Positions 24,209 to 51,637 of a stretch of 58,989 nt of DNA are shown in pieces. A program made the position numbers and the translations under genes. Each line of letters begins with the position of its first letter. Positions within the stretch are counted from its first letter, which is position 1. The notes under the pieces are model-generated. The model was given only the letters and a program-made list of their open reading frames with translations, was not told the origin of the DNA and searched no databases. The stretch spans positions 1 through 58,989 of the forward strand of contig JBMCVZ010000001.1 of the NCBI GenBank assembly GCA_048621695.1, written 5' to 3'. This DNA is from Chloroflexota bacterium (GTDB lineage Bacteria; Chloroflexota; Dehalococcoidia; GIF9; AB-539-J10).

Positions 24209-24218
24209 CACTCAGTTT

Positions 24219-24271
24219 GTCACCCTGAGCAATATCGAAGGGTCTAGGTTCTTCGCTACACTCAGAATGAC
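24219..24271. repeat. Family B palindromic element in the acsE-cdhD spacer
   Basis: The sequence is GTCACCCTGAG-N31-CTCAGAATGAC. Its termini are imperfect inverted copies of the GTCATTCTGAG word seen at 10818 and 10989. Confidence 0.7.
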
Positions 24272-24315
24272 AGGCGGGTTGTTGAATAACCTTGGAAAGT
24301 CAAGGAGGGTAATAA

Positions 24316-25221: not shown

Positions 25222-25223
25222 AG

Positions 25224-27533: not shown

Positions 27534-27565
27534 TAACAGGGAAAATGGCTTAAAAGGAGGAGAAA

Positions 27566-28117: not shown

Positions 28118-28123
28118 AGGAAA

Positions 28124-29371: not shown

Positions 29372-29375
29372 ATAT

Positions 29376-29421
29376 TAGTCAGTAGTCAGTAGTCAGCTAA
29401 CTGAAAGCTGAAAGCTGATAG
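29376..29421. repeat. Two back-to-back heptamer triplets in the cdhC-cdhE spacer
   Basis: (TAGTCAG)x3 lies at 29376-29396, then CTAA, then CTGAAAG-CTGAAAG-CTGATAG at 29401-21. The complementary word CTGACTA recurs at 55464-55477 and 56214-56230. Confidence 0.8.
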
Positions 29422-29440
29422 CTATCTAAGGAGGTTTGTT

Positions 29441-30811: not shown

Positions 30812-30824
30812 GCTTGTCGAAGGA

Positions 30825-31316: not shown

Positions 31317-31353
31317 GACAGACTCCTACGCCGCCTTTTTCTGTCTCAATCTC

Positions 31354-34031: not shown

Positions 34032-34095
34032 TTGAGGAAATATCCTCCCGTGGTGGAGGATTTGCAAAAATAAGTCGAAAGGCAGGTAAGGACTT

Positions 34096-34959: not shown

Positions 34960-34963
34960 ATCA

Positions 34964-36548: not shown

Positions 36549-37028
36549 ATGGGAAAATTTGTTCTGGGAATAGGGAATGCCTTATTAAGGGACGAAGGGA
36601 TTGGTTGTCATGTAACACATGCATTAGAGGAAATCCCTCTAACTGATGTAAAAATAATGGATGGTGGCACGTGCCCTGACATATTGCAGTTTCTTGAGAA
36701 TACTGACAAATTGATCATAGTAGATGCTGTTAAGGGTGGGGGAACGCCTGGACAAATTTACCGTTTTCATCTTGAAGACATAACTCTGGAGCAAAAGCCA
36801 TGTCTATCTCTTCACGATGTGGGCTTGGTGGAAAGCTTTGTGCTGATGCAGCTTTGGCACCCGGATTTTATGGGGATAAGTGAAGCCGTAATTATTGGAG
36901 TCGAGCCCAGGGAGATAGACTGGGGATTAGAACTATCGCCGGAACTCCAAGGGAAAATGCCTCAAATAATAGATACAATTCTGGCAGAGCTGAATAATAC
37001 GAATCCTAAAGGAGAGGTAAAATGTTGA
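36549..37028 (+). CDS. Hydrogenase maturation endopeptidase (HyaD/HoxW family)
   Basis: The GIGNALLRDEGIG, DGGT and IVDA motifs are present. The length is 159 aa. Confidence 0.85.
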   Translation: MGKFVLGIGNALLRDEGIGCHVTHALEEIPLTDVKIMDGGTCPDILQFLENTDKLIIVDAVKGGGTPGQIYRFHLEDITLEQKPCLSLHDVGLVESFVLMQLWHPDFMGISEAVIIGVEPREIDWGLELSPELQGKMPQIIDTILAELNNTNPKGEVKC

Positions 37029-37672
37029 TTTCAGAGCAAAAACCTATAGAAGAAATCCTGAGCTATCTCGACGTGGATAAGGATATATTTCTCATTGGCT
37101 GTAAGGCTTGTGCTGAGGGATGGGGGAGTGGGGGAGAAAAACAAGTAGCAGAAATGGGGAAAAGTCTGCAGGAGCAAGGCAAAAATATTACAGGTTCAGT
37201 AGTTGTCGATATGCTGTGCGATAGAGCGTTAACCAAGTTGAAGCTCAGAACCTACAAAAAGGAAATTGCTGCTGCTGATTCTGTCCTGGTTCTGACCGAT
37301 GGGGCTGGAGTGCAGACTGTAGCGGAAGTATTGGATAAGGCAGTACATCCTGGTTGCAACACTCTGTCCTCAGGTGGTTCCCACGCCGAGTGGAAAGAAG
37401 CGGAGCGCTGCCTTGAGTGTGGTGATTGTATGCTGGAGTTTACTGGCGGCATTTGCCCCATTGCTCGATGTTCCAAGCATCTGCTCAATGGTCCCTGTGG
37501 CGGCTCACAAGATGGTAAATGTGAAGTTGACCCTGATATACCATGTGTCTGGCAGCAGATCATCGATCGCCTTACCAGACTAGGACAGCTTGATAAATTA
37601 GAGAGGCTTGTGACACCGAAGAATTGGAGCGTGAGCCTTACATCAGGGCCACCTGTGAAGAGGTTTCCCTAG
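37022..37672 (+). CDS. metV: Methylene-THF reductase small, Cys-rich subunit MetV (MTHFR C-terminal-like domain protein)
   Basis: The motif is CLECGDCMLEFTGGICPIARCSKHLLNGPCGGSQDGKCEV. It overlaps the protease gene by 7 nt and sits immediately upstream of metF. Confidence 0.8.
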   Translation: MLISEQKPIEEILSYLDVDKDIFLIGCKACAEGWGSGGEKQVAEMGKSLQEQGKNITGSVVVDMLCDRALTKLKLRTYKKEIAAADSVLVLTDGAGVQTVAEVLDKAVHPGCNTLSSGGSHAEWKEAERCLECGDCMLEFTGGICPIARCSKHLLNGPCGGSQDGKCEVDPDIPCVWQQIIDRLTRLGQLDKLERLVTPKNWSVSLTSGPPVKRFP

Positions 37673-37704
37673 ATGTGACTATGAGTTAAACAATTGGAGG
37701 CGTA

Positions 37705-38634
37705 ATGAAGACTAAAAGTAATTTGGAAATGGTTCTAGGGGCTGGACAGTTTGCAGTTACAGGTGAATTGGGACCGCCACAAAGCGCCGACTCTGAGACA
37801 ATTAGAAGAAAAGCGAAGATACTCAAGGGTCATGTAGACGCCGTTAATGTCACCGATGGCCAGACTGCAGTGGTGCGCATGTCATCTTGGGCAGCCTGTC
37901 TTATCGGTAAGGAAGAGGGTTTAGACCCTATTGTGCAGATGACTTGCCGTGACCGGAATCGTATTGCCCTTCAAATGGATATTTTAGGCATATCAGCACT
38001 GGGCCTCAATAATATGTTATGTCTCACGGGCGACCACCAGAAATTTGGCAATCATCCTACGGCCAAAGGTGTCTATGATCTCGATTCCATTCAATTTCTT
38101 AAGATGGTGAAGGACATGCGGGATGAGAGAAAGTTCCAGTGTGGCGAAGAGATGACGGTTGAGCCTCGCCTTTTCATCGGAGCTGCTGCCAATCCCTTTG
38201 CTGATCCCCTTGAGTTCAGGGCAGCACGCCTTGGTAAGAAAGTGGCGGCAGGGGCAGATTTCATCCAAACCCAGATTATCTACAATGTAGAGAAGTTCGC
38301 TGAATGGATGAAAATGGTACGGGACAGAGGATTACATGAGAAAGTAAAGATACTTGCTGGTGTTGCTCCCATAAAGTCAGTGGGTGCCGCAAAATATATG
38401 AAAAACAAAGTTCCTGGAATGGATGTGCCTGACAGCGTTGTTGAACGGCTCCAAGGAGTGCCTAAGGAGCAGGTGCCCAATGAGGGCATCAAGCTCTGCA
38501 TTGACATCATCAAGCAAGTACATGAAATTGAAGGTGTGGCGGGTATTCATCTCATGGCTATCGAATGGGAAGAAGTAGTGCCCGAAATAGTAGAGGCAGC
38601 TGGTCTTTTGCCCCGCCCCAAATCTGTACAGTAA
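37705..38634 (+). CDS. metF: 5,10-Methylenetetrahydrofolate reductase MetF
   Basis: It shows the MTHFR TIM-barrel pattern: FAVTGELGPPQSAD, AVNVTDGQTAVVRMSS, LCLTGDH, ADFIQTQIIYN. The length is 309 aa. Confidence 0.85.
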   Translation: MKTKSNLEMVLGAGQFAVTGELGPPQSADSETIRRKAKILKGHVDAVNVTDGQTAVVRMSSWAACLIGKEEGLDPIVQMTCRDRNRIALQMDILGISALGLNNMLCLTGDHQKFGNHPTAKGVYDLDSIQFLKMVKDMRDERKFQCGEEMTVEPRLFIGAAANPFADPLEFRAARLGKKVAAGADFIQTQIIYNVEKFAEWMKMVRDRGLHEKVKILAGVAPIKSVGAAKYMKNKVPGMDVPDSVVERLQGVPKEQVPNEGIKLCIDIIKQVHEIEGVAGIHLMAIEWEEVVPEIVEAAGLLPRPKSVQ

Positions 38635-39281
38635 TGAAAGATTCTAGTTCTTTATCAGACAGTCCCTGGGAACGGGGTTTCGATATCTCTTATAAGCTTG
38701 CTCGTGAGAGGCTGGCCAAAATCAATAATATAAAAGAGCAATGTCGCAAAAGTGGTGCTAGATATCTGGCACCCAACGAGATCGTTATTAATTATCTAAA
38801 TCAACCGTACCATATTACACTTCCCGACATTGATATATTACTGGAGGGCAGTGATGCGAAAGTCCCGCTGAGAGACAAAATCCTGATACTTCACTATTTC
38901 ACTGAAGCAAAGGGTAACCCGGCTGCTGGTAAATTGATTGCCTACAAACAGCTACCGGGAGGCATCAGTTATTTCCCGGCATTTTCCCGAAGAGCAATAA
39001 CTCCTCTTGTAAAGCACTTTGGCAAAAGTCCTGAGATGCTAATAAAGGCAGCGGCAAAGTTAGGAGGCCGCGAGACAGACTACGGGGATGTTTCTGTGAC
39101 CATTAATGCTTTCGACCATGTGCCCATAACCTTAGTGTTATGGAGGGGCGATGCGGAGCTGGCTCCCAATGGAAATATATTGTTCGATGCTAATATCTCT
39201 GATTATCTTTCCACTGAGGATGTAACTGTGCTTACCGAAACTCTTATCTGGAAGCTGGTGAAGGATATTCCATCTGCCTAA
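38634..39281 (+). CDS. DUF3786 domain protein
   Basis: The start MKDSSS... shares 1 nt with the metF stop (TAATG). The pattern ILILHYFTEAKGNPAAGKLIAYKQLPGGISYFPAF...GDVSV...VLWRGDAEL matches my memory of DUF3786, a family often found beside corrinoid and Wood-Ljungdahl genes. Confidence 0.6.
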   Translation: MKDSSSLSDSPWERGFDISYKLARERLAKINNIKEQCRKSGARYLAPNEIVINYLNQPYHITLPDIDILLEGSDAKVPLRDKILILHYFTEAKGNPAAGKLIAYKQLPGGISYFPAFSRRAITPLVKHFGKSPEMLIKAAAKLGGRETDYGDVSVTINAFDHVPITLVLWRGDAELAPNGNILFDANISDYLSTEDVTVLTETLIWKLVKDIPSA

Positions 39282-39508: not shown

Positions 39509-42500
39509 ATGACTGAAGAAGGCATAATTACATTGAATATTGATGGTAAGAACATAAAAGCTAGGCAGGGGCAGACGATATTGGAGGCTGCCAGAAACTC
39601 AGGAATCTACATTCCCAGTCTTTGTTACTATCCCGGTATAAAACCGCTACCCCAAGTAATTCCTGATGCGGCTTGCCAGCTTTGCGTAGTGGAGACAAAC
39701 AACAATATCGTGCTCTCCTGTGTTACTCCCGTCTCTGAGCGAATGGTAGTTAAGACAAAGACGCCAAAGTTACAAGAACTACAGCAGAAGAAATTGCTTG
39801 TCATTTTAGCTAGACAACCTGCAGATATCTGCTTTGAAAAAAGAAACTGCGAACTTCAGAAAGCCATCGACTATATCGGTTTAAAGGAGATACCTGTCCA
39901 TGTTTCCAGGTCTTTAGCTACTTTAGAGGATAATCCTTTCTTCGCTCGTGATTCAAGCTTTTGCATTTTATGCCATCGCTGTCTTCGGGTCTGCGATGAG
40001 ATAAGAGGACTAGGGGTGATCGAACCTGCCTTTCCATGTTACAAAGCTTGTCCTGCTGGTATAGACGTTCCTCGTTATATTCGCCTTATTGCCAAAGGGA
40101 GACCAAGCGCTGCCTTAGCAGTGATAAGAGAAAAGGTTCCCTTTCCTGCTGTATTGGGTAGAGTATGCGCTGCCCCATGCCAGAAGGAATGTCGGCGTGG
40201 CCTAGACGTGGATGAAACATTACAAATAAGAATTCTTAAGCGCTTTGCCGCTGACAATGGTGATGATAGCTGGAAAAAACAAGCAAAGTCCCTTCCACCA
40301 ACTGGCAAAAGCATAGCGGTAGTTGGGGCGGGACCAGCAGGGCTTACCTGTGCTTATTATCTGGCCAAGCTAGGACACAAGGTAACTGTATTTGAAGCTC
40401 TCCCCGAGCCCGGTGGAATGATGAGAGTGGGGATTCCGGAATATCGCCTTCCGCGGAATATACTCAGCGACGAGATTCGAGAAATTGAGATGGCGGGTGT
40501 GGAAATCAGACTGAACACTCGGGTCGAGTCCTTAGACTCCCTTTTTGAACAGGGATACCAGGCGATTTTTCTAGCCATCGGTGCTCACCAAGAAATGAAG
40601 CTGGGGGTAGAAGGAGAAGGCGTGCTTGGGGTAATTGGGTGTGTTGAATTCCTTCGCCGGTTTAATCTTGGAGAGGAAGTGGAGCTGGGGGATAGGGTAG
40701 GGGTGATTGGTGGAGGAAACGTTGCCCTAGATTCTGCACGCACTGTTATACGGCTTGGCGCTAGGAGAGTGACCATTTTCTACCGCAGGACAAAGAACGA
40801 GATGCCAGCCCAACTAGAAGAGATAGAACAAGCATTGGAGGAGGGAGTTGAAATCATCTTTCTCGTTGCTCCTTCGAAGATTTTCAGAGAGAATGATGAC
40901 CTGAAGCTGGAGTTGATCCGCATGGAGTTAGGAGAGCCTGATGCTAGTGGCAGACGCCGACCTGTTCCGATTAAGGGCACTGAGTTTATCGCTGAGCTTG
41001 ATACTTTAATTGCTGCCATTGGCGAACAACCAGATGTTCCTGCGGGCTTCCAGGTCGAAGTAAAGCGGGGGAATATTTTGAAGGTCAATGAAGACCTAAG
41101 CACGAGTCGAGAGGGCGTTTTTGCTGGAGGTGATTGTGAGAGTGGCCCAGCTTTGGTCATCGATGCTATTGCAGCGGGAAGAAAGGCAGCTCAGTCCATT
41201 GACCGTTATCTTGGTGGCAGAGGGGATATTACAGAGCATCTGGTGCCTGCCGAGGAGGCAATGGCCTGGTTAGAAGATATATCTACAGGAGAAAAATTGG
41301 CTACCATTTCTTATCTTGCGCCACAGACACGCATTGATGGTCTTTCTGAAGTGGAGCAGGGAATGAATTGGGAGACAGCCGTTGCCGAAGCTCAACGCTG
41401 CCTCCAGTGCCATGCTATTGCCCCCTTAAATGAGCGAACACTTCGCGAGGTCGACTGCAAATTCTGCGGTGCCTGCGTTGATTCTTGTCCTACTAATGCC
41501 CTTGTTGATTTGGCTACTCGCGGGCTGGCGGAGCCTGACCGTGTAGTTACCACAATTTGTCCCTATTGTGGTGTTGGCTGCCAGTTAAATCTTCTGGTCA
41601 AGGATGAAAAGATAATAGCTTCCACCCCTGATCCAGATGGTGTGGCTAATCATGGGCAGGCATGTGTTAAAGGTCGCTTTGGCATCGCCGAGTTCGTCCA
41701 TCATCCCGAGAGGCTGACCACTCCCTTGATAAGAAAGAATGGGGAGTTGAAAGAGGCATCCTGGGAAGAAGCACTGGAACTGGTGGCTAAAAAATTGAAG
41801 GGTTACACACCAGCTGAAGTAGGCATCATCGCCTCAGCAAAGTGTACCAATGAAGAAAACTATGTCATGCAAAAATTCGCTCGAGCAGTGCTGGGTACTA
41901 ATAATGTTGATCACTGCGCTCGGCTATGTCATGCCCCTACAGTGGCTGGCCTGGTGCAGAGCTTTGGCAGTGGAGCAATGACTAATTCAATCAATGAAAT
42001 TGGCGACGCCGCTTGTATTTTGGCTATCGGCACTAATACTACAGAAGATCATCCTGTGATTGGGCTTGAGGTGAAGAGAGCAGTAAATAATGGCGGGAAG
42101 CTCATCGTGGCCAACCCCCGCCAGATTGACCTGTGCCACTTCGCCAGCCTCTGGCTGCAGCATAATCCCGGCACAGATGTCGCCCTGCTCATGGGGATGA
42201 TGCGGGTTATAGTAGATGAGGGATTATTGGACTCGGCCTTTATCAAGGATAGATGTGAGAACTTCGATGCTTTCAAGGAGTCGCTAAAAGATTTTGACCT
42301 TGATACTGCTGAGCAAATTACTGGCGTGCCACAGGACAAAATAATCGAAGCTGCCCGTATTTTCGCCACTAATAGTCCTGCCACCATACTTTATTCCATG
42401 GGCATTACTCAGCATTCTCACGGCACTGACAACGTGCTGGCTACCGCCAATCTGGCAATGCTCACCGGCAATATGGGCAAGCCTTCAACCGGGGTCAATC

Positions 42501-43558
42501 CACTCAGAGGTCAGAACAATGTACAGGGTGCCTGCGATATGGGTGCCTTGCCTAATGTCTATCCTGGCTATCAATCAGTGGCCGATCCAGCTATTAGAGA
42601 GAAATTCGAAGCTGCTTGGGGCTTCGGATTACCACCATCCCCAGGGTTAACCTTAGTTGAGATTTTCGATGCCGCATACCGCAAAGAGATAAAGGCGATA
42701 TATCTGGTTGGTGAGAACCCGGCATTAAGTGACCCTGATACCCAGCATGTCTGGGAGGCGCTGTCTCGGCTTGATTTCTTTGTTGTTCAGGATATATTCC
42801 TTTCTGAGACAGCAAGACTTGCCCATGTTGTCTTGCCAGCGGCGAGTTTTGCTGAAAAGGATGGCACCTTCACTAACACCGAACGCCGGGTACAGAGAGT
42901 GCGGAAAGCTATCCAGCCCGTAGGCGATTCCAAACCTGACTGGTGGACCGTCTGCCAGTTGGCCAAAAAGTTGGATGCCAAGGGCTTTGACTACAGCCAC
43001 CCATCTGACATAATGGAGGAAATTCGCAATCTTACGCCCAGCTATGGTGGGATAGGTTATCAGAGATTAGAAAATGGTGGACTTCAGTGGCCTTGTCCTA
43101 TTGATGACCATCCAGGCACGCCGATATTACACACGAATATTTTTGTTAAAGGGAAGGGTAGATTCATACCACTAAAATACATCCCTCCTGAAGAGGTGCC
43201 AGATGAAAACTATCCTCTGATTCTCACCACAGGACGCAGCCTGTATCATTTCCACACTGGCACCATGACCCGCAAGGTGGCTGGACTTAACATTATAGAG
43301 CCTGAAGGGGTAGTGGAAATCAGCCCTCAGGATGCTTCGAAACTCGGTATAGATCAAGGGGGCAAGGTAAAAGTTATCTCTCGGCGTGGTGAAGTTATCA
43401 CTAAAGCTAAAATAACTGAAACAATGCCACCCGGCTTAGTGTTCATGGCTTTCCATTTCGCCGAAAGTGCTGCTAATATCCTCACCAATCCCAAGCTCGA
43501 CCCGGTGTCCAAAATTCCCGAGCTCAAAGTCTCAGCAGTCAAAGTTGAGAAACTGTAG
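39509..43558 (+). CDS. Formate dehydrogenase alpha subunit (Mo/W-bis-MGD, Cys-type) with a GltD/SfrB-like FAD/NAD(P)H module inserted in its N-terminal ferredoxin region
   Basis: Residues 1-170 carry a [2Fe-2S] site (SLCYYPG..CQLC..C) and one 4Fe-4S motif (CILCHRCLRVC). Residues ~177-570 are GltD-like (CPAGIDVPRYIRLI, VAVVGAGPAGLTCAYYLAKLGHKVTVFEALPEPGGMMRVGIPEYRLP, VIGGGNVALDSA, VFAGGD). These are followed by CKFCGACVDSCP, CPYCGVGCQL, the active-site region HCARLCHAPT, and a standard FdhA end (KVSAVKVEKL). Confidence 0.85.
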   Translation: MTEEGIITLNIDGKNIKARQGQTILEAARNSGIYIPSLCYYPGIKPLPQVIPDAACQLCVVETNNNIVLSCVTPVSERMVVKTKTPKLQELQQKKLLVILARQPADICFEKRNCELQKAIDYIGLKEIPVHVSRSLATLEDNPFFARDSSFCILCHRCLRVCDEIRGLGVIEPAFPCYKACPAGIDVPRYIRLIAKGRPSAALAVIREKVPFPAVLGRVCAAPCQKECRRGLDVDETLQIRILKRFAADNGDDSWKKQAKSLPPTGKSIAVVGAGPAGLTCAYYLAKLGHKVTVFEALPEPGGMMRVGIPEYRLPRNILSDEIREIEMAGVEIRLNTRVESLDSLFEQGYQAIFLAIGAHQEMKLGVEGEGVLGVIGCVEFLRRFNLGEEVELGDRVGVIGGGNVALDSARTVIRLGARRVTIFYRRTKNEMPAQLEEIEQALEEGVEIIFLVAPSKIFRENDDLKLELIRMELGEPDASGRRRPVPIKGTEFIAELDTLIAAIGEQPDVPAGFQVEVKRGNILKVNEDLSTSREGVFAGGDCESGPALVIDAIAAGRKAAQSIDRYLGGRGDITEHLVPAEEAMAWLEDISTGEKLATISYLAPQTRIDGLSEVEQGMNWETAVAEAQRCLQCHAIAPLNERTLREVDCKFCGACVDSCPTNALVDLATRGLAEPDRVVTTICPYCGVGCQLNLLVKDEKIIASTPDPDGVANHGQACVKGRFGIAEFVHHPERLTTPLIRKNGELKEASWEEALELVAKKLKGYTPAEVGIIASAKCTNEENYVMQKFARAVLGTNNVDHCARLCHAPTVAGLVQSFGSGAMTNSINEIGDAACILAIGTNTTEDHPVIGLEVKRAVNNGGKLIVANPRQIDLCHFASLWLQHNPGTDVALLMGMMRVIVDEGLLDSAFIKDRCENFDAFKESLKDFDLDTAEQITGVPQDKIIEAARIFATNSPATILYSMGITQHSHGTDNVLATANLAMLTGNMGKPSTGVNPLRGQNNVQGACDMGALPNVYPGYQSVADPAIREKFEAAWGFGLPPSPGLTLVEIFDAAYRKEIKAIYLVGENPALSDPDTQHVWEALSRLDFFVVQDIFLSETARLAHVVLPAASFAEKDGTFTNTERRVQRVRKAIQPVGDSKPDWWTVCQLAKKLDAKGFDYSHPSDIMEEIRNLTPSYGGIGYQRLENGGLQWPCPIDDHPGTPILHTNIFVKGKGRFIPLKYIPPEEVPDENYPLILTTGRSLYHFHTGTMTRKVAGLNIIEPEGVVEISPQDASKLGIDQGGKVKVISRRGEVITKAKITETMPPGLVFMAFHFAESAANILTNPKLDPVSKIPELKVSAVKVEKL

Positions 43559-43596: not shown

Positions 43597-45123
43597 TCAG
43601 GTGTAGCAGAAGGGAAACAGCCTCTTAGGCTGCTCTAAACTATTGCTCTGATTATAAAGCTTTGTCGGCGTTTTGATTATTATTTGGGTGCCCTTTCCTA
43701 TTTGGGAGCTAACTTCAAGTTCTCCACCTATTAATTGGGCTCGTTCTACCATACCGGTGAGCCCCAACTTACCTCGACTGGCAAAATCACTTAGCTGCCG
43801 GGGAAGCTCAAAACCCTTGCCATTATCGCTAATCGTTATTCTGACCTCGTTTTCCCGGTATTCCATCGTAATGCTGGCTTGGGATGCCTCAGAATGGCGG
43901 TGAATATTATTTAAGGCTTCTTGAACAATGCGGAACAGAACTAGCTGTGTTTCTGGAGGGAGTGGTGGGACGGCATCTGCTTCGACCTGGATTTCGATTC
44001 CACTAAAGTTATGTGTTTCCTCAGCCAGCCATTTGATAGCCGCCAGCAAACCTAAATCATCCAGAATGCCTGGCCTGAGAGCCTGAGCATAGTGCTTAAT
44101 GCTTTGATAGGTTTGCTGGGACAGTTCATGTAGTTTCTCCAACTCATTTCTCAGCTCTTGAGGCAAATATCTCTCAGATTTAGCGGCAAGGTTATCTACG
44201 CCATGTGTTAGAAGCAATATTTGTTGAGAGGTGTCGTCATGAAGTTCACGAGCAAGGCGTTTCCGTTCTTCCTCCTGAGCTTGCAGAACCTGCCTGAGGT
44301 AGAACTGCACATTATCCTGTAATTTTCTCTCTTCGGTTATATCACGAGCCATATTCTGAAAAGCTTTGGGCTTGCCATCGCTAACAATAAGACGAGTGGA
44401 TAATTGAAAGATTGCTTCAGAGCCATCTTTTTTGATTGCCCGCTGCTCATAGCGGTGTTCCATAGCTTCGCCTCTCAATAGCCTATCTCTCACCTGTCTC
44501 GCTAAAGGCACTGCCTGTGGGGTAAGAAACTCGCGGACATTTTTGCCTGTAAATTCTGAAACCGAGTAGCCCGTGAGCCTTTCGCAGGCTTTATTGGCCA
44601 AAATGATATTGCCCTCTATATCGTGAATCCAGATAGCATCGCTGGCGTTAGCAAATAATTCCTCATAGTTTTGTTGCGACAATTCCAGATTCTTTATAGC
44701 CTCTTCTAATCTACCTTGCCGCTGTTTATCTTGATGGTAGGCTGCCATAAGTGCAATGGCTAAAGCGCCAATAACAAGGCTAGCAAGGCTTTCCAAGAGC
44801 GCATCTCCTAGATTAGGGCAAATCAAAAAGGTGCGAAGTAACATTACCAAAGCGCTTGATAGCCATACTGCGGCGCCCCCGATTATTCCCAGTGTCCAGC
44901 CTGCATATACTACTAACAAGAGATAAAGAAGTCGCTCCAAACTGTGCCGTAAAAGCTCTAGATCTGCGGGCACCGAGACCTCACCCAAGAAAGGTATTTG
45001 AAAAAGGAGCTGCGTAAAATGAGATATGGTTAGGAGAATGAACAAAACGATAATAATCCAGAGGTGTGGGTTTCCTAACCTCGGAGTTTGTCCTCGGTAT
45101 TCTCTAAGGTAACTAATCCCCAT
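43597..45123 (-). CDS. Sensor histidine kinase (membrane N-terminus, PAS, HisKA_3 H-box, HATPase)
   Basis: It has 4-5 TM helices, a PAS-like region (NASDAIWIHDIEGNIILANKACERLTGY), the H-box ERKRLARELHDDTSQQI, and N/G boxes (EALNNIHRH, DNGKGF, GLTGM). The start overlaps the regulator gene by 49 nt, so an internal alternative start is possible. Confidence 0.85.
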   Translation of the reverse strand: MGISYLREYRGQTPRLGNPHLWIIIVLFILLTISHFTQLLFQIPFLGEVSVPADLELLRHSLERLLYLLLVVYAGWTLGIIGGAAVWLSSALVMLLRTFLICPNLGDALLESLASLVIGALAIALMAAYHQDKQRQGRLEEAIKNLELSQQNYEELFANASDAIWIHDIEGNIILANKACERLTGYSVSEFTGKNVREFLTPQAVPLARQVRDRLLRGEAMEHRYEQRAIKKDGSEAIFQLSTRLIVSDGKPKAFQNMARDITEERKLQDNVQFYLRQVLQAQEEERKRLARELHDDTSQQILLLTHGVDNLAAKSERYLPQELRNELEKLHELSQQTYQSIKHYAQALRPGILDDLGLLAAIKWLAEETHNFSGIEIQVEADAVPPLPPETQLVLFRIVQEALNNIHRHSEASQASITMEYRENEVRITISDNGKGFELPRQLSDFASRGKLGLTGMVERAQLIGGELEVSSQIGKGTQIIIKTPTKLYNQSNSLEQPKRLFPFCYT

Positions 45124-45758
45124 TGTAATCCTTTGACTATTGCCTCACTGCGTGAGGCAACATTCAATTTGTTGAAGATATTAGTTAGGTGAGCTTTGAT
45201 AGTGCGCTGGCTGAGAAACAATTTTTCTGCTATCTCTTTGTTGCTCATTCCCGACGTGACTAAATTAAGTATCTCTGATTCCCGCTCACTCAGTAGGTCC
45301 GACGCCTTGTGCTTCCCAGCTGGCGCTGTTGTAGCTCGCTTTAGCAATTTGGCGATAATTTTGGGGTGGAGCACTGATTCACCTGATCTTATGGCCCGAA
45401 TAGCCCCAACCAAATCACGCCCCCTAGCGCTTTTCAGCAGATAGCCGGCAGCTCCGGCATCAAGTAATCCCAGTACATACTCGTCATCATCATAAGCAGT
45501 GAGGACTAGAATGGCTGTGTCAGGAGCAGACTCTTTGATCTTTCTGGTGGCTTCAATTCCATTGAGTTTGGGCATGACAATGTCCATCACCGCTACATTG
45601 GGCTTCAATTCTGAGGCAAACTTGACTGCTTCCTCGCCATCACCGACCTCAGCCACAACTTCTATGTCCTCCTCACCCTCTAGTGCTCGATGTAGGGCTT
45701 CACGCACCAAAGGGTGGTCGTCAGCAATCAAGACTGTTAACTTGTCTCTTGTTCCCAA
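45075..45758 (-). CDS. NarL/LuxR-family response regulator
   Basis: The receiver domain is VLIADDHPLVREAL...VAVMDIVMPKLNG. The C-terminal HTH is LSERESEILNLVTSGMSNKEIAEKLFLSQRTIKAHLTNIFNKL. Confidence 0.9.
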   Translation of the reverse strand: MGTRDKLTVLIADDHPLVREALHRALEGEEDIEVVAEVGDGEEAVKFASELKPNVAVMDIVMPKLNGIEATRKIKESAPDTAILVLTAYDDDEYVLGLLDAGAAGYLLKSARGRDLVGAIRAIRSGESVLHPKIIAKLLKRATTAPAGKHKASDLLSERESEILNLVTSGMSNKEIAEKLFLSQRTIKAHLTNIFNKLNVASRSEAIVKGLQWGLVTLENTEDKLRG

Positions 45759-45925: not shown

Positions 45926-46210
45926 ATGACTAAATGGATTCCAGTAACAAATGAAGAGGTTAAGGAAGGGGTTGTGTCAGAGAGAAGGGATTTACTCGCT
46001 GTTTTAAAGAGAGCGGCTAACGAATCGGAATTCTTGGCGCGATTAGCTGAGAATCCTCACGAGGCTCTAAAAGAGTATTACTCTTTGACTAACGAGGAGA
46101 GAGCTGCCTTAGCCAGCGGGGACATCAGGAAAATAGAATCATGGGTAGGTAAGCTAGATAAAGAGCTAGCTACCTGGCTGTGGTGCCGGCTATCTCAAGA
46201 GAAATGGTGA
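45926..46210 (+). CDS. Small helical protein, free-standing paralog of the C-terminal extension of the downstream FdhA
   Basis: It is 94 aa. Residues ~23-94 (LLAVLKRAANESEFLARLAENPHEALKEYYSLTNEERAALASGDIRKIESWVGKLDKELATWLWCRLSQEKW) align along their full length with the last 70 aa of the 48674..51637 product. The RBS is AAGGA. Confidence 0.6.
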   Translation: MTKWIPVTNEEVKEGVVSERRDLLAVLKRAANESEFLARLAENPHEALKEYYSLTNEERAALASGDIRKIESWVGKLDKELATWLWCRLSQEKW

Positions 46211-46225
46211 GTAGTGAGGTATGAA

Positions 46226-46735
46226 ATGGTGAATCATTCGGCAGTAGAAGACACTCAGGCGCTACTTGGGCGAGAGACGGTGATGCAAGAGCGCCTAAGC
46301 GAAATTCTATCCTCCTACGATGGTAAGAAAGAGGAGCTTATTCCTATCTTGCAGCAAGCGCAGCAGGCTTTTGGTTATCTGCCAGAGACGATAATGAAAA
46401 AAACAGCTAAATTCCTCAAACTGCCAGAAAGCACCGTCTTTGGGGTGGGCACATTTTATGCTCAATTCAAGCTTGTTCCAACAGGGAGAAACATTGTCAG
46501 GGTTTGTCGCGGCACTGCCTGCCATGTACGTGGCAGTGCACAGATACTTGGCGAAATAGAAAAGCAATTAGGCATTAGTGCAGGTGAAACTACGCCAGAT
46601 CTTGAATATTCGCTAGAGACGATAGCCTGCTTTGGTTCGTGCGCACTGGCACCAGTTGTGGTTACTAACAGCAAGGTGCATGGGAGGATGACGACTTCCA
46701 AGGCAAGGGATATGTTAAATAAGGAGGAACAGTGA
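46226..46735 (+). CDS. NuoE/HydC-like [2Fe-2S] subunit (copy 2)
   Basis: The motifs are LIPILQQAQQAFGYLPETIMKKTA, VGTFYAQFKL, CRGTACHVRGS and CFGSCALAPV. The start is uncertain among 46214, 46226 and 46283. Confidence 0.85.
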   Translation: MVNHSAVEDTQALLGRETVMQERLSEILSSYDGKKEELIPILQQAQQAFGYLPETIMKKTAKFLKLPESTVFGVGTFYAQFKLVPTGRNIVRVCRGTACHVRGSAQILGEIEKQLGISAGETTPDLEYSLETIACFGSCALAPVVVTNSKVHGRMTTSKARDMLNKEEQ

Positions 46736-48642
46736 GTTTCGAAGAAATCAAGAGCCAAGCTATACTGCAATGGGAAGCAATGCAGCAAAGCGAGAAAACT
46801 CGTATTTTAATTGGCATGGGAACTTGTGGGCGAGCAGCTGGTGCTGACGATATACTTGATGTTCTTAACCAAGAGTTAGCCCAGCAACATATTCAAGCTG
46901 ATATTCTTAAGGTTGGTTGCATCGGTCTTTGTTATGCTGAGCCCTTGATCGAAGTAATAAAACCAGGCATGCCTGGTGTCTTTTACGGCGATCTAACCCC
47001 CGAAATTATAGCTGAGATCGTCAAGGACTACTTAATTGACGGCAACCCTCGTCCTGAGTTAGCTTTGGGCACTCGTGGAGAAGGGACATTAGATGGTATT
47101 CCCAGGCTTTTTGAATTGCCAGTACTTAAACCTCAAGTGCGTATCTCTTTGCGCAATTGTGGAAATATCGATCCTGAAAGTATAGACCATTATATTGCTA
47201 ATGGTGGTTATGAAGGTCTGGCCAAGGCGTTGAGAATGAACCCCCAGGAAGTGATTGATGAGATAAGAAAATCGGGGTTGCGAGGTCGTGGTGGGGCTGG
47301 CTTTCCAACAGGAGTTAAATGGCAGTTCTGCCACGATGCTCCCGGTAATATCAAATATGTGATATGTAATGCTGATGAGGGGGACCCAGGGGCATTTATG
47401 GATCGAGCGCTTCTTGAAGGTGATCCGCATGCTGTGTTGGAAGGAATGCTCATTGGTGCTTATGCTATAGGTGCGACTGAAGGGTACATTTATATCCGAG
47501 CCGAGTATCCGCTAGCAATCCAAAGGTTACGGACTGCTATTAAGCAAATGGAGGAATATGGGTTATTAGGTGACGATATTATGGGCTCTGGCTTTAGATT
47601 CCATATCAAAATAAAAGAAGGAGCTGGGGCCTTTGTCTGTGGTGAGGAGACAGCGTTGCTGGCTTCTATTGAGGGCAAGAGGGGAATGCCACGGTCTCGT
47701 CCTCCTTTCCCTGCTGTCTCTGGATTATGGGGCAAGCCTACTAACATCAATAATGTGGAGACTTGGAGCAATGTCTCAGCTATTTTCCCGAAAGGTGCCG
47801 AATGGTATGCCGGCTACGGTACAGATAAGAGCAAGGGAACCAAGAACTTTTCTTTGGCAGGCAAAATTGTTCGCACTGGGCTTATGGAAGTCCCAATGGG
47901 AATTAGCTTGCGTGAGATAGTATATGACATAGGTGGGGGCATTCCTGGAGGGAAACGCCTTAAAGCAATCCAGACCGGAGGACCATCGGGTGGTTTCATA
48001 CCCGAGCGTTTGGTAGACCTGCCAGTCGATTACGAATCTCTGGCCGAGGCAGGGTCGATTATGGGCTCAGGTGGGATGGTAGTAATAGATGAGGGTACTT
48101 GTATGGTTGATATGACAAAGTTCTTCCTCACCTTTACCCAAGCTGAGTCATGTGGCAAATGCATACCATGCCGGTGGGGCAATAAACAAATCCTGGACAT
48201 ACTAGAGGATATAAGCAAAGGAAGAGGCAGGTCCGACGATATTGGATTGCTTCAAGAATTGGCGGAATCCGTCAAAGATGGTTCTTTATGCGGTTTAGGA
48301 CAAACTGCTCCTAACCCGGTTCTTACTAGTATCCGTTACTTCCGAGACGAGTATGAAGAGCACATCTTTGAAAAAAGCTGCTCGGCGCTTCACTGCCAAG
48401 CTCTTATATCTTACTACATTCTTCCTGACAAATGTAATGGCTGTATGATTTGTGCCAGAAACTGTCCTGTCCAAGCAATTGAGGGCAGCAAACGGATGGT
48501 GCATGTTATTGATCAGCATAAGTGCACAAAGTGTGGGAATTGCTTAGATGTCTGTCCATCTAAGTTCAGTGCGGTAGTTAAAGTTGCCGGGAAGCCTTTG
48601 GATATCCCTGAGAAGCCTATGCCTATAGCTGCCGAGGCTTAA
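46732..48642 (+). CDS. NuoF/HydB-like NAD(P)H-binding flavoprotein (copy 2)
   Basis: It has the same architecture and motifs as 31354..33267 (GLRGRGGAGFPT, CNADEGDPGAFMDR, ESCGKCIPCRWG, 2 terminal ferredoxin motifs). It overlaps the nuoE-like stop by 4 nt. Confidence 0.9.
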   Translation: MSFEEIKSQAILQWEAMQQSEKTRILIGMGTCGRAAGADDILDVLNQELAQQHIQADILKVGCIGLCYAEPLIEVIKPGMPGVFYGDLTPEIIAEIVKDYLIDGNPRPELALGTRGEGTLDGIPRLFELPVLKPQVRISLRNCGNIDPESIDHYIANGGYEGLAKALRMNPQEVIDEIRKSGLRGRGGAGFPTGVKWQFCHDAPGNIKYVICNADEGDPGAFMDRALLEGDPHAVLEGMLIGAYAIGATEGYIYIRAEYPLAIQRLRTAIKQMEEYGLLGDDIMGSGFRFHIKIKEGAGAFVCGEETALLASIEGKRGMPRSRPPFPAVSGLWGKPTNINNVETWSNVSAIFPKGAEWYAGYGTDKSKGTKNFSLAGKIVRTGLMEVPMGISLREIVYDIGGGIPGGKRLKAIQTGGPSGGFIPERLVDLPVDYESLAEAGSIMGSGGMVVIDEGTCMVDMTKFFLTFTQAESCGKCIPCRWGNKQILDILEDISKGRGRSDDIGLLQELAESVKDGSLCGLGQTAPNPVLTSIRYFRDEYEEHIFEKSCSALHCQALISYYILPDKCNGCMICARNCPVQAIEGSKRMVHVIDQHKCTKCGNCLDVCPSKFSAVVKVAGKPLDIPEKPMPIAAEA

Positions 48643-48673
48643 GTATTTTGTTAGTATTAAGGAAGGTGCCACG

Positions 48674-51637
48674 ATGAGTGCAATCGTTACAACCAAGGTT
48701 GAAGAAAAGGACATAGCCACCATCAGGCTGACTATTAATGAACAGGGAGTCGAAGCGGAAAAGGGAGTCACTGTACTTGAGGCAGCACTGAATGCTGGTA
48801 TCTATATTCCCACGCTATGTTATGATCCTGACCTCAAGCCCTATGGAGGTTGTCGGCTCTGCACGGTTGAGATTGAAGGAATGCGGGGCTTGGTCAGCTC
48901 GTGTACCACGCCAGCAACCGATGGTATGGTGGTACACACCGAGACAGAACGAGTAAATCGGTCACGCCGTATCACCATGGAGCTTATTATCGCTAATCAC
49001 CACGGCGATTGTCTAACCTGTGCCAAAAACCAAGACTGTGAGCTACTTAAGATTGCTCGATATCTAGGCATGGAACAAGAGCATATTGACCGTCTGAGAA
49101 AGGGCACTCAAGTGCTTCCTATGGATAAAAGCCATCCGGCATTTATCCGTGACCCGAATAAGTGTATTCTTTGTGGCAGGTGCGTGCGAGCGTGCCATGA
49201 AATAGCTGTCGTTGGCGCCATTGACATGGCCTTCCGGGGCAATTCTGCAAAGGTAGCCACCTTTGGTGATAAACCGATTGTCGAGTCTATCTGCAAGTCC
49301 TGCGGGGAATGTGTTGCCCGATGTCCTACAGGAGCATTGATACCCAAATGGGAAAAATTACCTGCTAAAGAAGTTAAAACCATCTGTCCCTACTGTGGAG
49401 TCGGCTGCTCCATCTACTTAGGTGTTCGTGATAATAAGATTGTTTCCGTGCGAGGTGACCCCGAGGGTCCAACTAACAAGGGCAGCCTGTGCGTTAAAGG
49501 GCGCTGGGGATACGATTTTGTTAGTCATCCAGAAAGATTAACAGCGCCCCTTATCCGATTACCAGGCGTTGCCCGGCAAGCAGGTCACAACGGGAAAGTG
49601 CAAGAAATCTTCCGTGAAGCTAGCTGGGATGAGGCTCTTAAGCTGGTGGCAAACAAGCTACTTGAACTCAAGCATGGTCACGGAGCAGATAGTATCGCTA
49701 CCTTAAGCTCAGCTAAGTGCACCAATGAAGATAACTATGCTATGCAGAAATTCGTTCGCTCTGTGATTGGGACTAATAACATTGACCATTGTGCTCGGTT
49801 ATGCCATGCCTCTACTGTCGTTGGGGGTATCGCTGCCTTCGGTCAAGGGGCAATGAGTAATTCTTATTCCGATTTTGAGAAGACCGGACTTTTCTTCGTC
49901 ATCGGCTCTAACACTACGGAATGCCATCCAGTTATTGGCGCAATAATTAAGAGAAGAGTCAAGTTTGACGGAGCTAAGCTTATTGTGGCTGACCCGCGCT
50001 CTACGGAGCTTGGCGAATATGCCACTGCCAAGCTTGTACACAAGCCAGGGACAGATGTTGCCCTTATCAACGGACTAATGCATGTTATCATTAGAGATGG
50101 CCTTGAGGATAGGGAATTTATCCGAAAGCGCACTGAAGGTTTTGAGGATATGCGCCAGCTTGTGGAACGATTTACTCCTGACGTGGTAGAGGCCATAACG
50201 GGGGTTCCCAAAGCTGATTTGGAAGCGGCCGCCCACCTTTTCGGTGCGGCGAAAAGCGCTTGTATCCTCTACGGAATGGGTATCACCCAGCATACCACCG
50301 GCACAGATAATGTTAAAAGTGTGGCAAATTTGCTGCTACTGACCGGCAATATTGGCAGGGAAGGCACGGGTTTCAGCCCTCTTCGGGGCCAAAACAATGT
50401 GCAGGGTGCTTGCGATATGGGTGCCTTACCTAACGTCTATCCCGGCTATCAAAAGGTTGATGATCCTGCTGTGAGAATGAAGTTCGAAACTGCTTGGGGA
50501 GCTAAATTGAGCGACCATACGGGGCTGACAGTTACCGAAGTGGCTAATGCTATACTCAGGGGAGACATTAAAGGACTCTATGTCATGGGTGAGAATCCTA
50601 TGTTAAGTGAACCTCACCTTGAGCATACCAGGCAGGCAATGGAGAAACTCGAATTCCTGGTAGTGCAAGATATCTTTCTCTCCGAGACTGCTTGGTTAGC
50701 TGACGTTGTTTTCCCAGCTGCTGCCTACGCTGAAAAAGATGGAAGCTTTACCAATACTGAGAGGCGAGTTCAGAGAATAAGGCGGGCCCTTATGCCGCCC
50801 GGGGAAGCAAAGGCTGACTGGGAGATTATATCTGCTTTGGCGAAAAAGATGGAAAAACCGTTTGACTACCAGAGTGCCAGCCAGATTACGGAAGAAATTG
50901 CCTCCCTGACTCCTATTTATGGTGGTGTCCTTTTCGACCGCCTTGACAATGGCAGTTTGCAGTGGCCTTGCTTGGATACCGCACACCCTGGAACGAAATT
51001 CCTTTACCAGGATGGGTTCGCACGGGGACGGGGCAAATTCCATGCTGTAGACTACGCACCACCGGCAGAATCGATATCCAAAGGTTTTCCGCTGGTTCTC
51101 ACTACAGGACGGGTGCTGGAACATTGGCACACCGGCACCATGAGTCGTCGCTCTAACGTACTCAGTGAACTTAACCCTAACGGTGTAGTTGAAATGAGCC
51201 CCAGCGATGCATTGAAGCTTGGCCTTATTGAGGGAGATTCAATAGTAGTTGCCTCAGAGAGGGGTCGATTGGAGGCACCATTGCATATTACGGAAGAGCT
51301 ACCTCCTGGAGTCGTCTTTATGCCCTTCCACTGGCATGAGGCGGCAGTGAATATCCTTACCAATGATGCTCTTGACCCAGTGGCTAAGATTCCGGAGTAC
51401 AAAGTCTCTGCTGTAAATGCTGTATTAGCGGTGCTCGATAGAGCTGCCCAGGATAATGCCTTTCTGGCTCGACTAGCGGAAAATCCCGCAGGGGCTCTGA
51501 AAGAGTACGAACTGACAGCGGAAGAAAAAGCTGCGCTGATGAGCGGAGACATACGCAAGATAGAATCATGGCTGGGCAAGCTGGATGAGCGCCTTAAGAC
51601 GTGGCTTATGCTGCGATTATCTCAAGAGAAATGGTAG
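48674..51637 (+). CDS. fdhA: Formate dehydrogenase alpha subunit (NuoG-like N-terminus, Mo/W-bis-MGD, Cys-type) with a 70-aa C-terminal extension
   Basis: It has a [2Fe-2S] site (TLCYDP..CRLC), a His-ligated cluster motif (HHGDCLTCAKNQDC), 2x4Fe-4S, CPYCGVGCS, and the active site HCARLCHAST. The normal end ..KVSAVNAV is followed by an extra domain encoded at 51425-51634. Confidence 0.9.
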   Translation: MSAIVTTKVEEKDIATIRLTINEQGVEAEKGVTVLEAALNAGIYIPTLCYDPDLKPYGGCRLCTVEIEGMRGLVSSCTTPATDGMVVHTETERVNRSRRITMELIIANHHGDCLTCAKNQDCELLKIARYLGMEQEHIDRLRKGTQVLPMDKSHPAFIRDPNKCILCGRCVRACHEIAVVGAIDMAFRGNSAKVATFGDKPIVESICKSCGECVARCPTGALIPKWEKLPAKEVKTICPYCGVGCSIYLGVRDNKIVSVRGDPEGPTNKGSLCVKGRWGYDFVSHPERLTAPLIRLPGVARQAGHNGKVQEIFREASWDEALKLVANKLLELKHGHGADSIATLSSAKCTNEDNYAMQKFVRSVIGTNNIDHCARLCHASTVVGGIAAFGQGAMSNSYSDFEKTGLFFVIGSNTTECHPVIGAIIKRRVKFDGAKLIVADPRSTELGEYATAKLVHKPGTDVALINGLMHVIIRDGLEDREFIRKRTEGFEDMRQLVERFTPDVVEAITGVPKADLEAAAHLFGAAKSACILYGMGITQHTTGTDNVKSVANLLLLTGNIGREGTGFSPLRGQNNVQGACDMGALPNVYPGYQKVDDPAVRMKFETAWGAKLSDHTGLTVTEVANAILRGDIKGLYVMGENPMLSEPHLEHTRQAMEKLEFLVVQDIFLSETAWLADVVFPAAAYAEKDGSFTNTERRVQRIRRALMPPGEAKADWEIISALAKKMEKPFDYQSASQITEEIASLTPIYGGVLFDRLDNGSLQWPCLDTAHPGTKFLYQDGFARGRGKFHAVDYAPPAESISKGFPLVLTTGRVLEHWHTGTMSRRSNVLSELNPNGVVEMSPSDALKLGLIEGDSIVVASERGRLEAPLHITEELPPGVVFMPFHWHEAAVNILTNDALDPVAKIPEYKVSAVNAVLAVLDRAAQDNAFLARLAENPAGALKEYELTAEEKAALMSGDIRKIESWLGKLDERLKTWLMLRLSQEKW

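Follow-up and report, generated by a model that had tools for sequence, protein, structure and literature searches.

A formate dehydrogenase with a GltD/NfnL-type module inserted in its ferredoxin fold, encoded in a Wood-Ljungdahl gene cluster of a Dehalococcoidia bacterium

We analyzed a 58,989-nucleotide stretch of DNA (hereafter the window) from a Chloroflexota bacterium (assembly GCA_048621695.1, contig JBMCVZ010000001.1), in which the gene at 39509–43558 on the forward strand encodes a formate dehydrogenase (FDH) in a single unbroken frame of 1349 amino acids (aa). Pfam and NCBIfam profiles match it far above chance: Fer2_4 at the N terminus, the GltD-type pair Fer4_20 (66.6 bits) and Pyr_redox_2 (115 bits, E = 5e-33), one lone Fer4 motif, and the molybdopterin domains of an FDH alpha subunit (Table 1). 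The FDH alpha equivalog TIGR01591 scores 892.1 bits over aa 682–1346 against a cut-off of 666.25. Aligned by BLASTP with the conventional paralog FdhA of the same window (48674–51637), aa 7–175 of this fused FDH correspond to paralog residues 17–188 (34% identity) and aa 637–1344 to residues 194–914 (54% identity). Because both flanks align around it, the extra segment spans aa 176–636 (nt 40034–41416), or 461 residues. A reading made earlier from the letters of the DNA (the sequence-only reading) had estimated about 400 extra residues at approximately aa 177–570; the insertion stands, while its extent had to be revised, as the estimate left out a linker and a C-terminal 'EAQRCLQC' piece belonging to the module. 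The GltD-type motifs listed in that reading are all found (CPAGIDVP, aa 181–188; GAGPAGL, aa 273–279; GGGNVALD, aa 401–408; VFAGGD, aa 537–542).

The segment is internal, as had been proposed, and separates the motif CILCHRCLRVC (aa 152–162) from CKFCGACVDSCP (aa 650–661). When aa 176–636 were removed in silico, a full Fer4_7 match (positions 2–52 of 52) and a Fer4_Nqo3 match (5–66 of 67) appeared across the junction, neither of which is found in the native protein. Since excision restores these dicluster-ferredoxin matches, the module is inserted within the 2x[4Fe-4S] fold. We call this order of segments, Fer2 – His region – motif A – GltD – motif B – Mo (F-A-G-B-M), Type Q. Two further peculiarities of the N-terminal region noticed earlier were borne out. 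The motif of the His-ligated [4Fe-4S] cluster is degenerate (QPADICFEKRNC, aa 103–114, versus HHGDCLTCAKNQDC in the paralog), and the profile NADH-G_4Fe-4S_3 (PF10588) matches the paralog with no match in the fused FDH. The [2Fe-2S] loop reads C-x16-C, six residues longer than the C-x10-C of the paralog and of every conventional FdhA relative examined; its length is 16 in 36/37 Type Q loci, and all Type Q proteins are long-looped. Several divergent Type Q relatives retain H-x3-C-x2-C-x5-C plus a second four-Cys motif, and the His-ligated cluster has, as far as motifs can tell, decayed in the subclade of the window. In the N-terminal Fe-S region, Type Q members bearing the His cluster are nearest to the beta subunit encoded at locus L067 (44–50%), and the fused FDH and that of L027 are nearest to FdhA N-termini (43–46%). 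The double motif, H-x3-C-x2-C-x5-C followed by C-x10-C-x2-C-x5-C, lies about 300 nt into the FDH gene at L025, L030, L033, L036 and L037, recurs in the separate 729-aa beta subunit of L067 (5675–7864) and is absent from the fused FDH of the window; it suggests an extra Fe-S cluster beside the His-ligated one in those proteins.

Among structures in the PDB, the module best matches NfnA of Csac (9bov_A, residues 103–568), StnC of S. ovata (8oh5_C, residues 103–566) and NfnA of T. sibiricus (9n5u_A), followed by NfnB/NfnL, GltD and DPD. The StnC structure holds flavin adenine dinucleotide (FAD), NADPH and two [4Fe-4S] clusters in its GltD-type domain, with K170 as an unusual Lys ligand of the FAD-proximal cluster (PMC10482914). 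In our alignment with 8oh5_C, K244 of the fused FDH corresponds to StnC K170 and R313 to StnC R239, and C114, an alternate Cys ligand of StnC, is replaced by Val. The FAD motif of the module is GxGxxG (GAGPAGL) and its NADPH motif GxGxxA (GGGNVA, aa 401–406), followed by YRRT (aa 425–428); 'GGGN.A.D...YRRT' is common to the module and the StnC/NfnA structures, and GxGxxA has been interpreted as NADP(H)-specific (PMC7483475; PMC12054007). By homology, the module would bind both FAD and NADPH and would be specific for the latter nucleotide.

The module is circularly permuted. The first 30 positions of the Fer4_20 profile, which hold the canonical 'EA.RC..C' pair, sit at its far end, at aa 611–636: aa 596–640 by itself matches profile positions 4–29, and joining aa 606–636 before aa 176–262 yields one colinear match (positions 4–108) and raises the score from 66.6 to 98.8 bits. 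As tail and head rejoin into one Fer4_20 match, both ends of the module are parts of a single Fe-S domain. 'EA.RCL.C' ends every module of the subfamily, including proteins whose chain stops there. Seven Cys and one Lys are candidate cluster ligands, the first C-x2-C pair (C631, C634) lying C-terminally, and the ligand set looks complete in permuted order. From the DPD/GltD pattern, we take C631, C634, C177 and C228 to be the ligands of the distal cluster; C181, C220, C224 and K244 presumably bind the proximal one. The permutation would explain how the module can sit in a loop with its distal cluster toward the host protein. In an unbootstrapped neighbor-joining (NJ) tree, Type Q modules form one group, nearest to NuoF-fused and beta-subunit modules with which they share a 'VPRY' signature.

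At the level of motifs, the FDH site appears intact: C807–H808 lie in CARLCH, R1000 in LRGQNNVQG and K721 in CVKGR, and we equate these residues with U140, H141, R333 and K44 of E. coli FdhH. An in-frame TGA occupies the metal-ligand position ('CAR[LV]*H') at L002 (3925–3927), L025, L027, L030–L033, L036 and L037, where the subclade of the window has Cys; the divergent TGA-bearing Type Q members share 57–68% core identity with the fused FDH. Gene callers shorten such genes to ~800–840 aa (e.g., P0122, 825 aa), and because TGA (selenocysteine) genes are truncated in this way, database counts of the Type Q architecture are likely too low. From about aa 719 onward (41663–43558), the fused FDH is 88% identical to the conventional NuoEF-linked FdhA of L046 (3813–6485), while their N-terminal Fe-S domains share just 41–48% identity, with the switch near 'CVKGRFGIAEFVHH' (aa 719). 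This suggests a mosaic core and recombination between FDH genes near aa 719; evidently, catalytic cores have been reshuffled with input modules by recombination. An NJ tree of the core, expected to sort by arrangement type, showed the types interspersed (unbootstrapped, indicative only), and because the core is mosaic, with its apparent breakpoint near aa 719, the tree cannot date the insertion.

We searched for homologues among 5.8 billion proteins, with results returned as clusters, and found more than 120 homologue clusters at 78–100% identity, all of 1342–1384 aa except for one truncated 1299-aa entry, with an identical domain set and drawn from independent JGI, ENA, NCBI and Logan assemblies. 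Where a name is given, it is 'formate dehydrogenase subunit alpha', from Dehalococcoidia or Chloroflexota metagenome-assembled genomes (MAGs). Every Fe-S ligand Cys and the metal ligand C807 are kept in at least 119 of 120 homologues, and C807 and the cysteines of the Molybdop_Fe4S4 domain are invariant in 120. A scan of one genome per GTDB species identified 235 relatives, the best 79 loci of which we typed by the order of five query segments. Type Q accounts for 35 complete loci among these 79, all from different MAGs and nearly all from Dehalococcoidia or Chloroflexota, with two labelled Deltaproteobacteria or Desulfobacteraceae (L027, L032).

Two other arrangements bring a GltD module to an FDH-like protein. 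In Type S, the module comes straight after the [2Fe-2S] domain and is followed by the His-type cluster and both 4Fe-4S motifs (F-G-A-B-M), a layout found in StnC, both NfnA structures, the PRK12814/SfrB profile and a set of one-chain FDHs. In Type B, GltD stands behind both motifs in a separate ~700-aa beta subunit (P0175, P0257 and the L067 beta subunit). Among the best 150 representatives of 50%-identity clusters retrieved with query aa 1–1200, 34 clusters were Type S and 2 were Type Q. FDH active-site motifs are kept in 7 of the 34 Type S representatives and missing in the other 27. Those that keep them include a 'formate dehydrogenase subunit alpha' of a cultured Vibrio (WP_182797120.1; 1409 aa, 522 cluster members), proteins from Deltaproteobacteria MAGs and a transcript of Stygiella incarcerata. 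One-chain FDHs with GltD are, judged by their motifs, not rare, and it is the Type Q insertion site that appears as the new element; since fusions of a GltD module with FDH-like proteins are already known, the fused FDH represents a known kind of fusion in a new layout. Our literature search for the Type Q arrangement, or for any characterized one-chain NADPH-dependent FDH, returned nothing beyond the Stn/Nfn-Bfu work and a general list of proteins in which GltD is fused to DMSOR (PMC6147048). Among the Type S proteins with intact active-site motifs, P0127 (1589 aa) has an extra ~200-aa C-terminal extension; it comes from the transcriptome of the anaerobic jakobid Stygiella incarcerata and may be eukaryotic or a contaminant.

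The fused FDH gene is the last of a Wood-Ljungdahl cluster that runs from an AcsE-like gene through archaeal-type CdhD/A/B/C/E (23306–30811), NuoE1–NuoF1 (30783–33267), CooC, the small and large subunits of a cytoplasmic NiFe hydrogenase and HycI to MetV, MetF, DUF3786 and the fused FDH. Beyond it lie a convergent histidine kinase and LuxR-type regulator, a 94-aa open reading frame (ORF), NuoE2–NuoF2–FdhA2 and MobA. The gene order of the cluster is repeated in a relative at 83% identity. Relatives with a 70–88% identical core show three layouts: NuoE-NuoF-FdhA, NuoE-NuoF::GltD(1026 aa)-FdhA and NuoE-NuoF-FdhA(Sec)-beta(GltD). Those with an orthologous core carry DUF3786-NuoE-NuoF(+/-GltD)-FdhA-kinase-regulator in the same syntenic place; examples of NuoEF-FdhA there are L044, L048 and L066, with DUF3786 upstream and the kinase (-), regulator (-) and 94-aa ORF downstream. 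Locus L083 reads CdhC-CdhD-NuoE-NuoF-CooC-x-MetF-DUF3786-NuoE-NuoF-FdhA-kinase-regulator. In the window and its close relatives, this place holds DUF3786-[fused FDH]-kinase-regulator, and the FDH-adjacent NuoEF pair is missing. The NuoEF pair behind CdhD also occurs in L082 and L083 alongside the FDH-adjacent one, and because these loci have both pairs, NuoE1/NuoF1 of the window is not a relocated FDH pair. At the divergent loci L025 and L027, the Type Q gene is flanked by housekeeping genes only, with no redox partner near. This comparison indicates that the fused gene probably replaced a three-gene NuoE + NuoF(+/-GltD) + FdhA enzyme in the Wood-Ljungdahl cluster, and it provides the strongest available support for the earlier proposal that the insert stands in for a NuoEF-type diaphorase.

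Among these relatives, a fusion of NuoF (with flavin mononucleotide, FMN, and NADH) to GltD (FAD and NADPH), 1026–1046 aa long, comes right before a conventional FdhA at L044 (1318–4398), L082 (6898–9978) and L001 (17277–20417); an FDH paired with such a fusion would carry two different nucleotide sites. NuoF2 of the window (46732–48642) has only 636 aa and lacks GltD. At L067, FdhA is accompanied by the separate 729-aa beta subunit, making it a two-gene relative.

Table 1. The fused FDH gene, its domains and its neighbors in the window
Feature	Position	Strand	Basis
Whole gene: FDH with internal GltD/NfnL-type module (Type Q)	39509..43558	+	Intact 1349-aa ORF; Pfam/NCBIfam domains; >120 full-length homologue clusters
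[2Fe-2S] domain, aa 1-95; ligands C39, C56, C59, C71; clade-specific C-x16-C loop	39509..39793	+	Fer2_4 aa 7-85; Cys conservation
Remnant of His-ligated [4Fe-4S] site, aa 96-146; sole remaining Cys C108 and C114	39794..39946	+	NADH-G_4Fe-4S_3 match missing
2x[4Fe-4S] ferredoxin fold, first half, aa 147-175; C152, C155, C158, C162	39947..40033	+	Sequence; excision test
GltD/NfnL-type NADPH-FAD-2x[4Fe-4S] module, aa 176-636, circularly permuted	40034..41416	+	BLASTP boundaries versus paralog; PDB matches
Fer4_20 'head', aa 176-251; C177, C181, C220, C224, C228, K244	40034..40261	+	Fer4_20 profile 31-108 only
FAD and NADPH Rossmann domains, aa 268-557; GAGPAGL 273-279, GGGNVALD 401-408, YRRT 425-428, VFAGGD 537-542	40310..41179	+	Pyr_redox_2 aa 268-557; motifs
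Permuted Fer4_20 'tail', aa 611-636; EAQRC631LQC634, C-terminal end of module	41339..41416	+	Fer4_20 profile 4-29 alone
2x[4Fe-4S] ferredoxin fold, second half, aa 637-675; C650, C653, C656, C660-P	41417..41533	+	Fer4 aa 649-665; excision test
Molybdopterin-enzyme [4Fe-4S] domain, aa 678-727; C684, C687, C691, C719, K721	41540..41689	+	Molybdop_Fe4S4 aa 678-727, E = 9e-19
Mo/W-bis-pyranopterin guanine dinucleotide (bisPGD) catalytic core and cap, aa 735-1341; C807-H808, R1000	41711..43531	+	TIGR01591 892 bits; 54% identity to paralog; Molybdopterin aa 735-1154, E = 2e-80; Molydop_binding aa 1237-1341
Upstream neighbors MetV 37022-37672, MetF 37705-38634, DUF3786 38565-39281	37022..39281	+	Pfam; order kept in L001 and many Type Q loci
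Downstream histidine kinase and LuxR-type response regulator, syntenic markers	43597..45758	-	Pfam; conserved
Comparison system of Fdh-Bfu type: NuoE2 46214-46735, NuoF2 46732-48642, conventional FdhA 48674-51637	46214..51637	+	Pfam, NCBIfam

The relatives of the module with solved structures are the StnC/NfnA proteins, BfuA subunits of Nfn-Bfu enzymes, as in StnABC of Sporomusa ovata (8OH5), NfnABC of Caldicellulosiruptor saccharolyticus (9BOV/9BP5) and NfnA of Thermococcus sibiricus (9N5U). Like the fused FDH, they carry a GltD/NfnL-type NADPH-FAD-2x[4Fe-4S] module within a NuoG/FdhA-like protein (PMC10482914; PMC11829005), and the module shows the same permutation (start 'PC...CP', end 'EA.RCL.C'), the aligned Lys of the proximal cluster and the same NADPH-site sequence. 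Theirs follows the [2Fe-2S] domain and feeds the chain through cluster A3, whereas that of the fused FDH lies between the two 4Fe-4S motifs and A3 has been lost; aa 113–170 of the fused FDH align past the module in 8oh5_C (residues 572–631) and 9bov_A (residues 600–629). Their Fdh-like domain is dead and they require BfuB and BfuC, while the fused FDH has its site motifs and no adjacent BfuBC genes. We rejected membership in this family on the position of the module, the missing adjacent BfuB (NuoF-like) and BfuC (NuoE-like), and the non-degenerate FDH domain.

In the literature searched, the sole characterized FDH in which NADPH enters through a GltD/SfrB-like protein is the NADP-dependent enzyme of Moorella thermoacetica (EC 1.17.1.10), with an alpha subunit encoded by sfrA2/fdhF3 and a GltD-like beta subunit encoded by sfrB2, which also serves the Wood-Ljungdahl pathway (PMC13040438). 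By its description, that enzyme has two subunits, selenocysteine and tungsten, whereas the fused FDH is one chain with Cys. Type S FDHs such as Vibrio WP_182797120.1 likewise unite Fer2, GltD module and an FDH core with intact motifs in one polypeptide, but carry the module at the StnC position, before the His-type cluster and both 4Fe-4S motifs; they share 43–51% overall identity with the fused FDH, and the unbootstrapped tree of modules places theirs outside the Type Q group. NuoEF-dependent FDHs (Fdh-Bfu/FdsABG; here the paralog system at 46214–51637 and L083) resemble the fused FDH in their FdhA core (up to 88% identity, L046), type of N-terminal Fe-S domain and chromosomal place. They differ in taking electrons from separate NuoE/NuoF subunits (FMN, NADH, possibly ferredoxin) without a GltD insert, and have the His-ligated cluster, the C-x10-C loop and adjacent NuoE/NuoF genes, none of which the fused FDH has. 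Type III HdrA offers a precedent for a GltD domain inserted in a ferredoxin domain and changing the electron donor, although its host protein is unrelated, its insert has GxGxxG (NADH-specific according to the authors) and it lacks a molybdopterin site (PMC12054007). SfrB/PRK12814 of the Geobacter SfrAB type also combines Fer2 and GltD, and its profile NF009454 (positions 103–590) is matched by the fused FDH. There, GltD sits right behind Fer2 in a separate subunit, while the fused FDH has ~75 extra residues between the two; we rejected membership, as the match is split into two stretches, is not colinear in layout and scores 527.7 bits where 916 is the cut-off. Of the 'GltD/SfrB signature' proposed by the sequence-only reading, the module motifs thus hold, and an SfrB/PRK12814-type layout does not.

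We propose, with a probability of roughly two in three (0.68), that the protein is a cytoplasmic, Cys-type Mo/W-bisPGD FDH with its own NADP(H) module, a single chain coupling NADPH/NADP+ to CO2/formate. The most likely reading of the locus is a CO2/formate oxidoreductase of the Wood-Ljungdahl cluster that is linked to NADP(H) and does not depend on NuoEF. In the path predicted by homology, NADPH would reduce the FAD of the module, from which electrons would pass to the proximal [4Fe-4S] cluster (C181, C220, C224, K244), the distal one (C177, C228, C631, C634), the two clusters of the ferredoxin fold (C152/155/158 with C660; C650/653/656 with C162), the [4Fe-4S] cluster of the molybdopterin domain (C684, C687, C691, C719) and the Mo/W center (C807, H808, R1000). 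The permuted module would occupy a loop of the host's ferredoxin fold, its distal-cluster domain, formed from both ends, facing the host chain. In Csac NfnABC, the route is FAD-A7-A6-A3-A2, from where electrons go either to A1 and B1 or along the Fdh-like branch A4-A5 (PMC11829005). Because the Type Q module attaches between the motifs that supply ligands to the A2/A4 pair, the A3 bridge would not be needed; the layout would skip the His-ligated cluster that joins module to chain in StnC/NfnA-type proteins.

Several points weigh against such an enzyme. The [2Fe-2S] domain is kept and fully conserved, with no obvious use in a self-contained enzyme, and in NuoG-like proteins this domain passes electrons to a NuoF-like subunit in all cases (PMC11829005). 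The NuoE1–NuoF1 pair is encoded 6 kb upstream, within this same conserved cluster, and we found no NuoG/HoxU-like gene that could partner it among the annotated ORFs of the window besides the two FDH genes. At the divergent Type Q loci L030, L033 and L037, NuoE/NuoF adjoin the gene on the opposite strand. CO2 reduction driven by NADPH is uphill under standard conditions (PMC9304861, Table 1), and the searched literature contains no experimental study of the Type Q clade. An AlphaFold2 model of aa 1–760 (21 sequences, at least 76% identical) was of low confidence (mean pLDDT, the predicted local distance difference test, 43; pTM, the predicted template modeling score, 0.28) and is unusable for judging cluster-to-cluster distances.

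In an alternative that we consider unlikely, the protein is a BfuA-like subunit docking through its [2Fe-2S] domain on NuoE1/NuoF1 as in HydBC or BfuBC, giving an StnABC-like complex with a live FDH site that handles NADP(H) and NAD(H)/ferredoxin and possibly bifurcates. The near-invariant [2Fe-2S] cysteines (at least 119/120), the HydB/HydC-like character of NuoE1/NuoF1, their want of another partner in the window and the divergently oriented NuoEF genes just mentioned all suit it; so do the nearest relatives of the module with solved structures, StnC and NfnA, which function only with BfuBC partners via A1 (PMC10482914; PMC11829005), and relatives whose FDH operon has both NuoEF and GltD, the latter fused to NuoF (NuoF::GltD) or forming a separate beta subunit. 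Set against docking are the occurrence of the pair behind CdhD where FdhA has a pair of its own (L082, L083), which assigns it to the carbon monoxide dehydrogenase/acetyl-CoA synthase (CODH/ACS) part of the cluster, the loss in Type Q genomes of precisely the FDH-adjacent pair, the lone genes of L025 and L027, and the clade-specific six-residue insertion in the [2Fe-2S] loop. An elaboration, less probable still, would explain the retained [2Fe-2S] entry domain by continued docking on NuoE1/NuoF1 in a hybrid 'Fdh-Nfn-Bfu' enzyme, perhaps wired to the adjacent cytoplasmic NiFe hydrogenase, in which a single complex would link CO2/formate to NADPH, NADH and ferredoxin; the searched literature describes no Bfu enzyme whose A subunit has two input sites, whether catalytic or for nucleotides. 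It is comparably doubtful, and if anything slightly more so, that a self-contained NADP-linked enzyme runs oxidatively, making NADPH from formate: this is the downhill direction (PMC9304861, Table 1), L083 has a formate/nitrite transporter gene just past the kinase-regulator pair, and the second, NuoEF-linked FDH of the window could cover the other direction, yet the fused gene stands directly behind metV-metF-DUF3786 in the CODH/ACS cluster and the Moorella enzyme acts as a CO2 reductase in acetogenesis (PMC13040438). Sequence cannot tell direction, and this context would fit a reductive role.

That the FDH part is dead, leaving an NADPH-oxidizing electron-input subunit, has its model in StnC, annotated as a formate dehydrogenase yet without FDH activity (PMC7483475), and in the many Type S representatives lacking active-site motifs. 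The TIGR01591 score, C807-H808, R1000, K721 and the full set of cluster ligands, and core identities of 54% to the paralog and 88% to a conventional FdhA all argue otherwise, as does the TGA at the ligand position of divergent members, which would hardly be retained in a dead site; with intact motifs and a score above cut-off, we rejected this explanation as very improbable. The most remote is that separate fdhB-like and fdhA genes were merged by an assembly error or a frameshift, a possibility that the sequence-only reading itself had singled out. No point in its support was found, the 1342–1384-aa architecture recurs in the >120 clusters from independent assemblies and in the 35 complete loci, and the insert lies inside a fold whose halves match only once rejoined, which gene-to-gene fusion would not give. 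We therefore dismissed an artefact and retain a single-chain NADP(H)-linked enzyme as the preferred reading.

To our knowledge, metal-dependent FDHs are the fastest biological catalysts of CO2 reduction, and we know of no soluble nucleotide-linked one that works without separate diaphorase subunits. A single-gene enzyme wiring NADPH to a Mo/W site would, if the proposal is right, be a compact candidate for work on CO2 reduction and cofactor regeneration. On cores up to 88% identical, nature provides a series of four layouts (NuoE+NuoF+FdhA; NuoE+NuoF::GltD+FdhA; FdhA with a GltD-type beta subunit; FdhA with GltD inserted) that documents exchange of electron-input modules. The permutation suggests a structural reason for the repeated insertion of GltD into Fe-S proteins, as in StnC/NfnA and type III HdrA. 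Ecologically, the enzyme would imply that the Wood-Ljungdahl pathway of subsurface Dehalococcoidia has an NADPH-linked first or last step.

The remaining observations concern the surroundings of the gene. Rfam at gathering thresholds found no family in the 59-kb window (1–58989), be it a tRNA, a riboswitch (the Moco riboswitch among them) or another known RNA, and a scan for promoters and terminators around the gene was at or near background (7 promoter-like hits versus 5.4 expected; 9 terminator-like hits versus 4.4 expected, standard deviation 2.2). NuoE1/NuoF1, between CdhD/E and CooC, resemble HydC/HydB, with a thioredoxin-like N terminus and C-terminal Fe-S motifs. The hydrogenase after CooC (region 30783–36523) is of the NiFe(Se) type, its small subunit lacking the signal-peptide part of the profile, and the arrangement NuoE1/NuoF1-CooC-hydrogenase is kept in L001, L082 and L083; the NuoE1/NuoF1 region may act as a Bfu-type module for CODH/ACS or for the hydrogenase. 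The 94-aa ORF before NuoE2 (45926–46210), conserved behind the kinase-regulator pair in many relatives, is homologous to the C-terminal tail of the paralog FdhA (aa 916–987, 51419–51634); the two share the pattern 'FLARLAENP..ALKEY.LT.EE.AAL.SGDIRKIESW.GKLD..L.TWL..RLSQEKW', and both weakly match PF14407 (Frankia_peptide). The CODH/ACS set (23306–30811) is of archaeal type on a bacterial contig and comprises CdhA with a ferredoxin insert, CdhB epsilon, CdhC, two CdhD-like genes and an AcsE-like pterin-binding protein. Just before the Wood-Ljungdahl cluster, a 1388-aa protein (16205–20371) has DUF2229 and two BcrAD/BadFG ATPase domains, a domain pattern known from CoA-enzyme activases.

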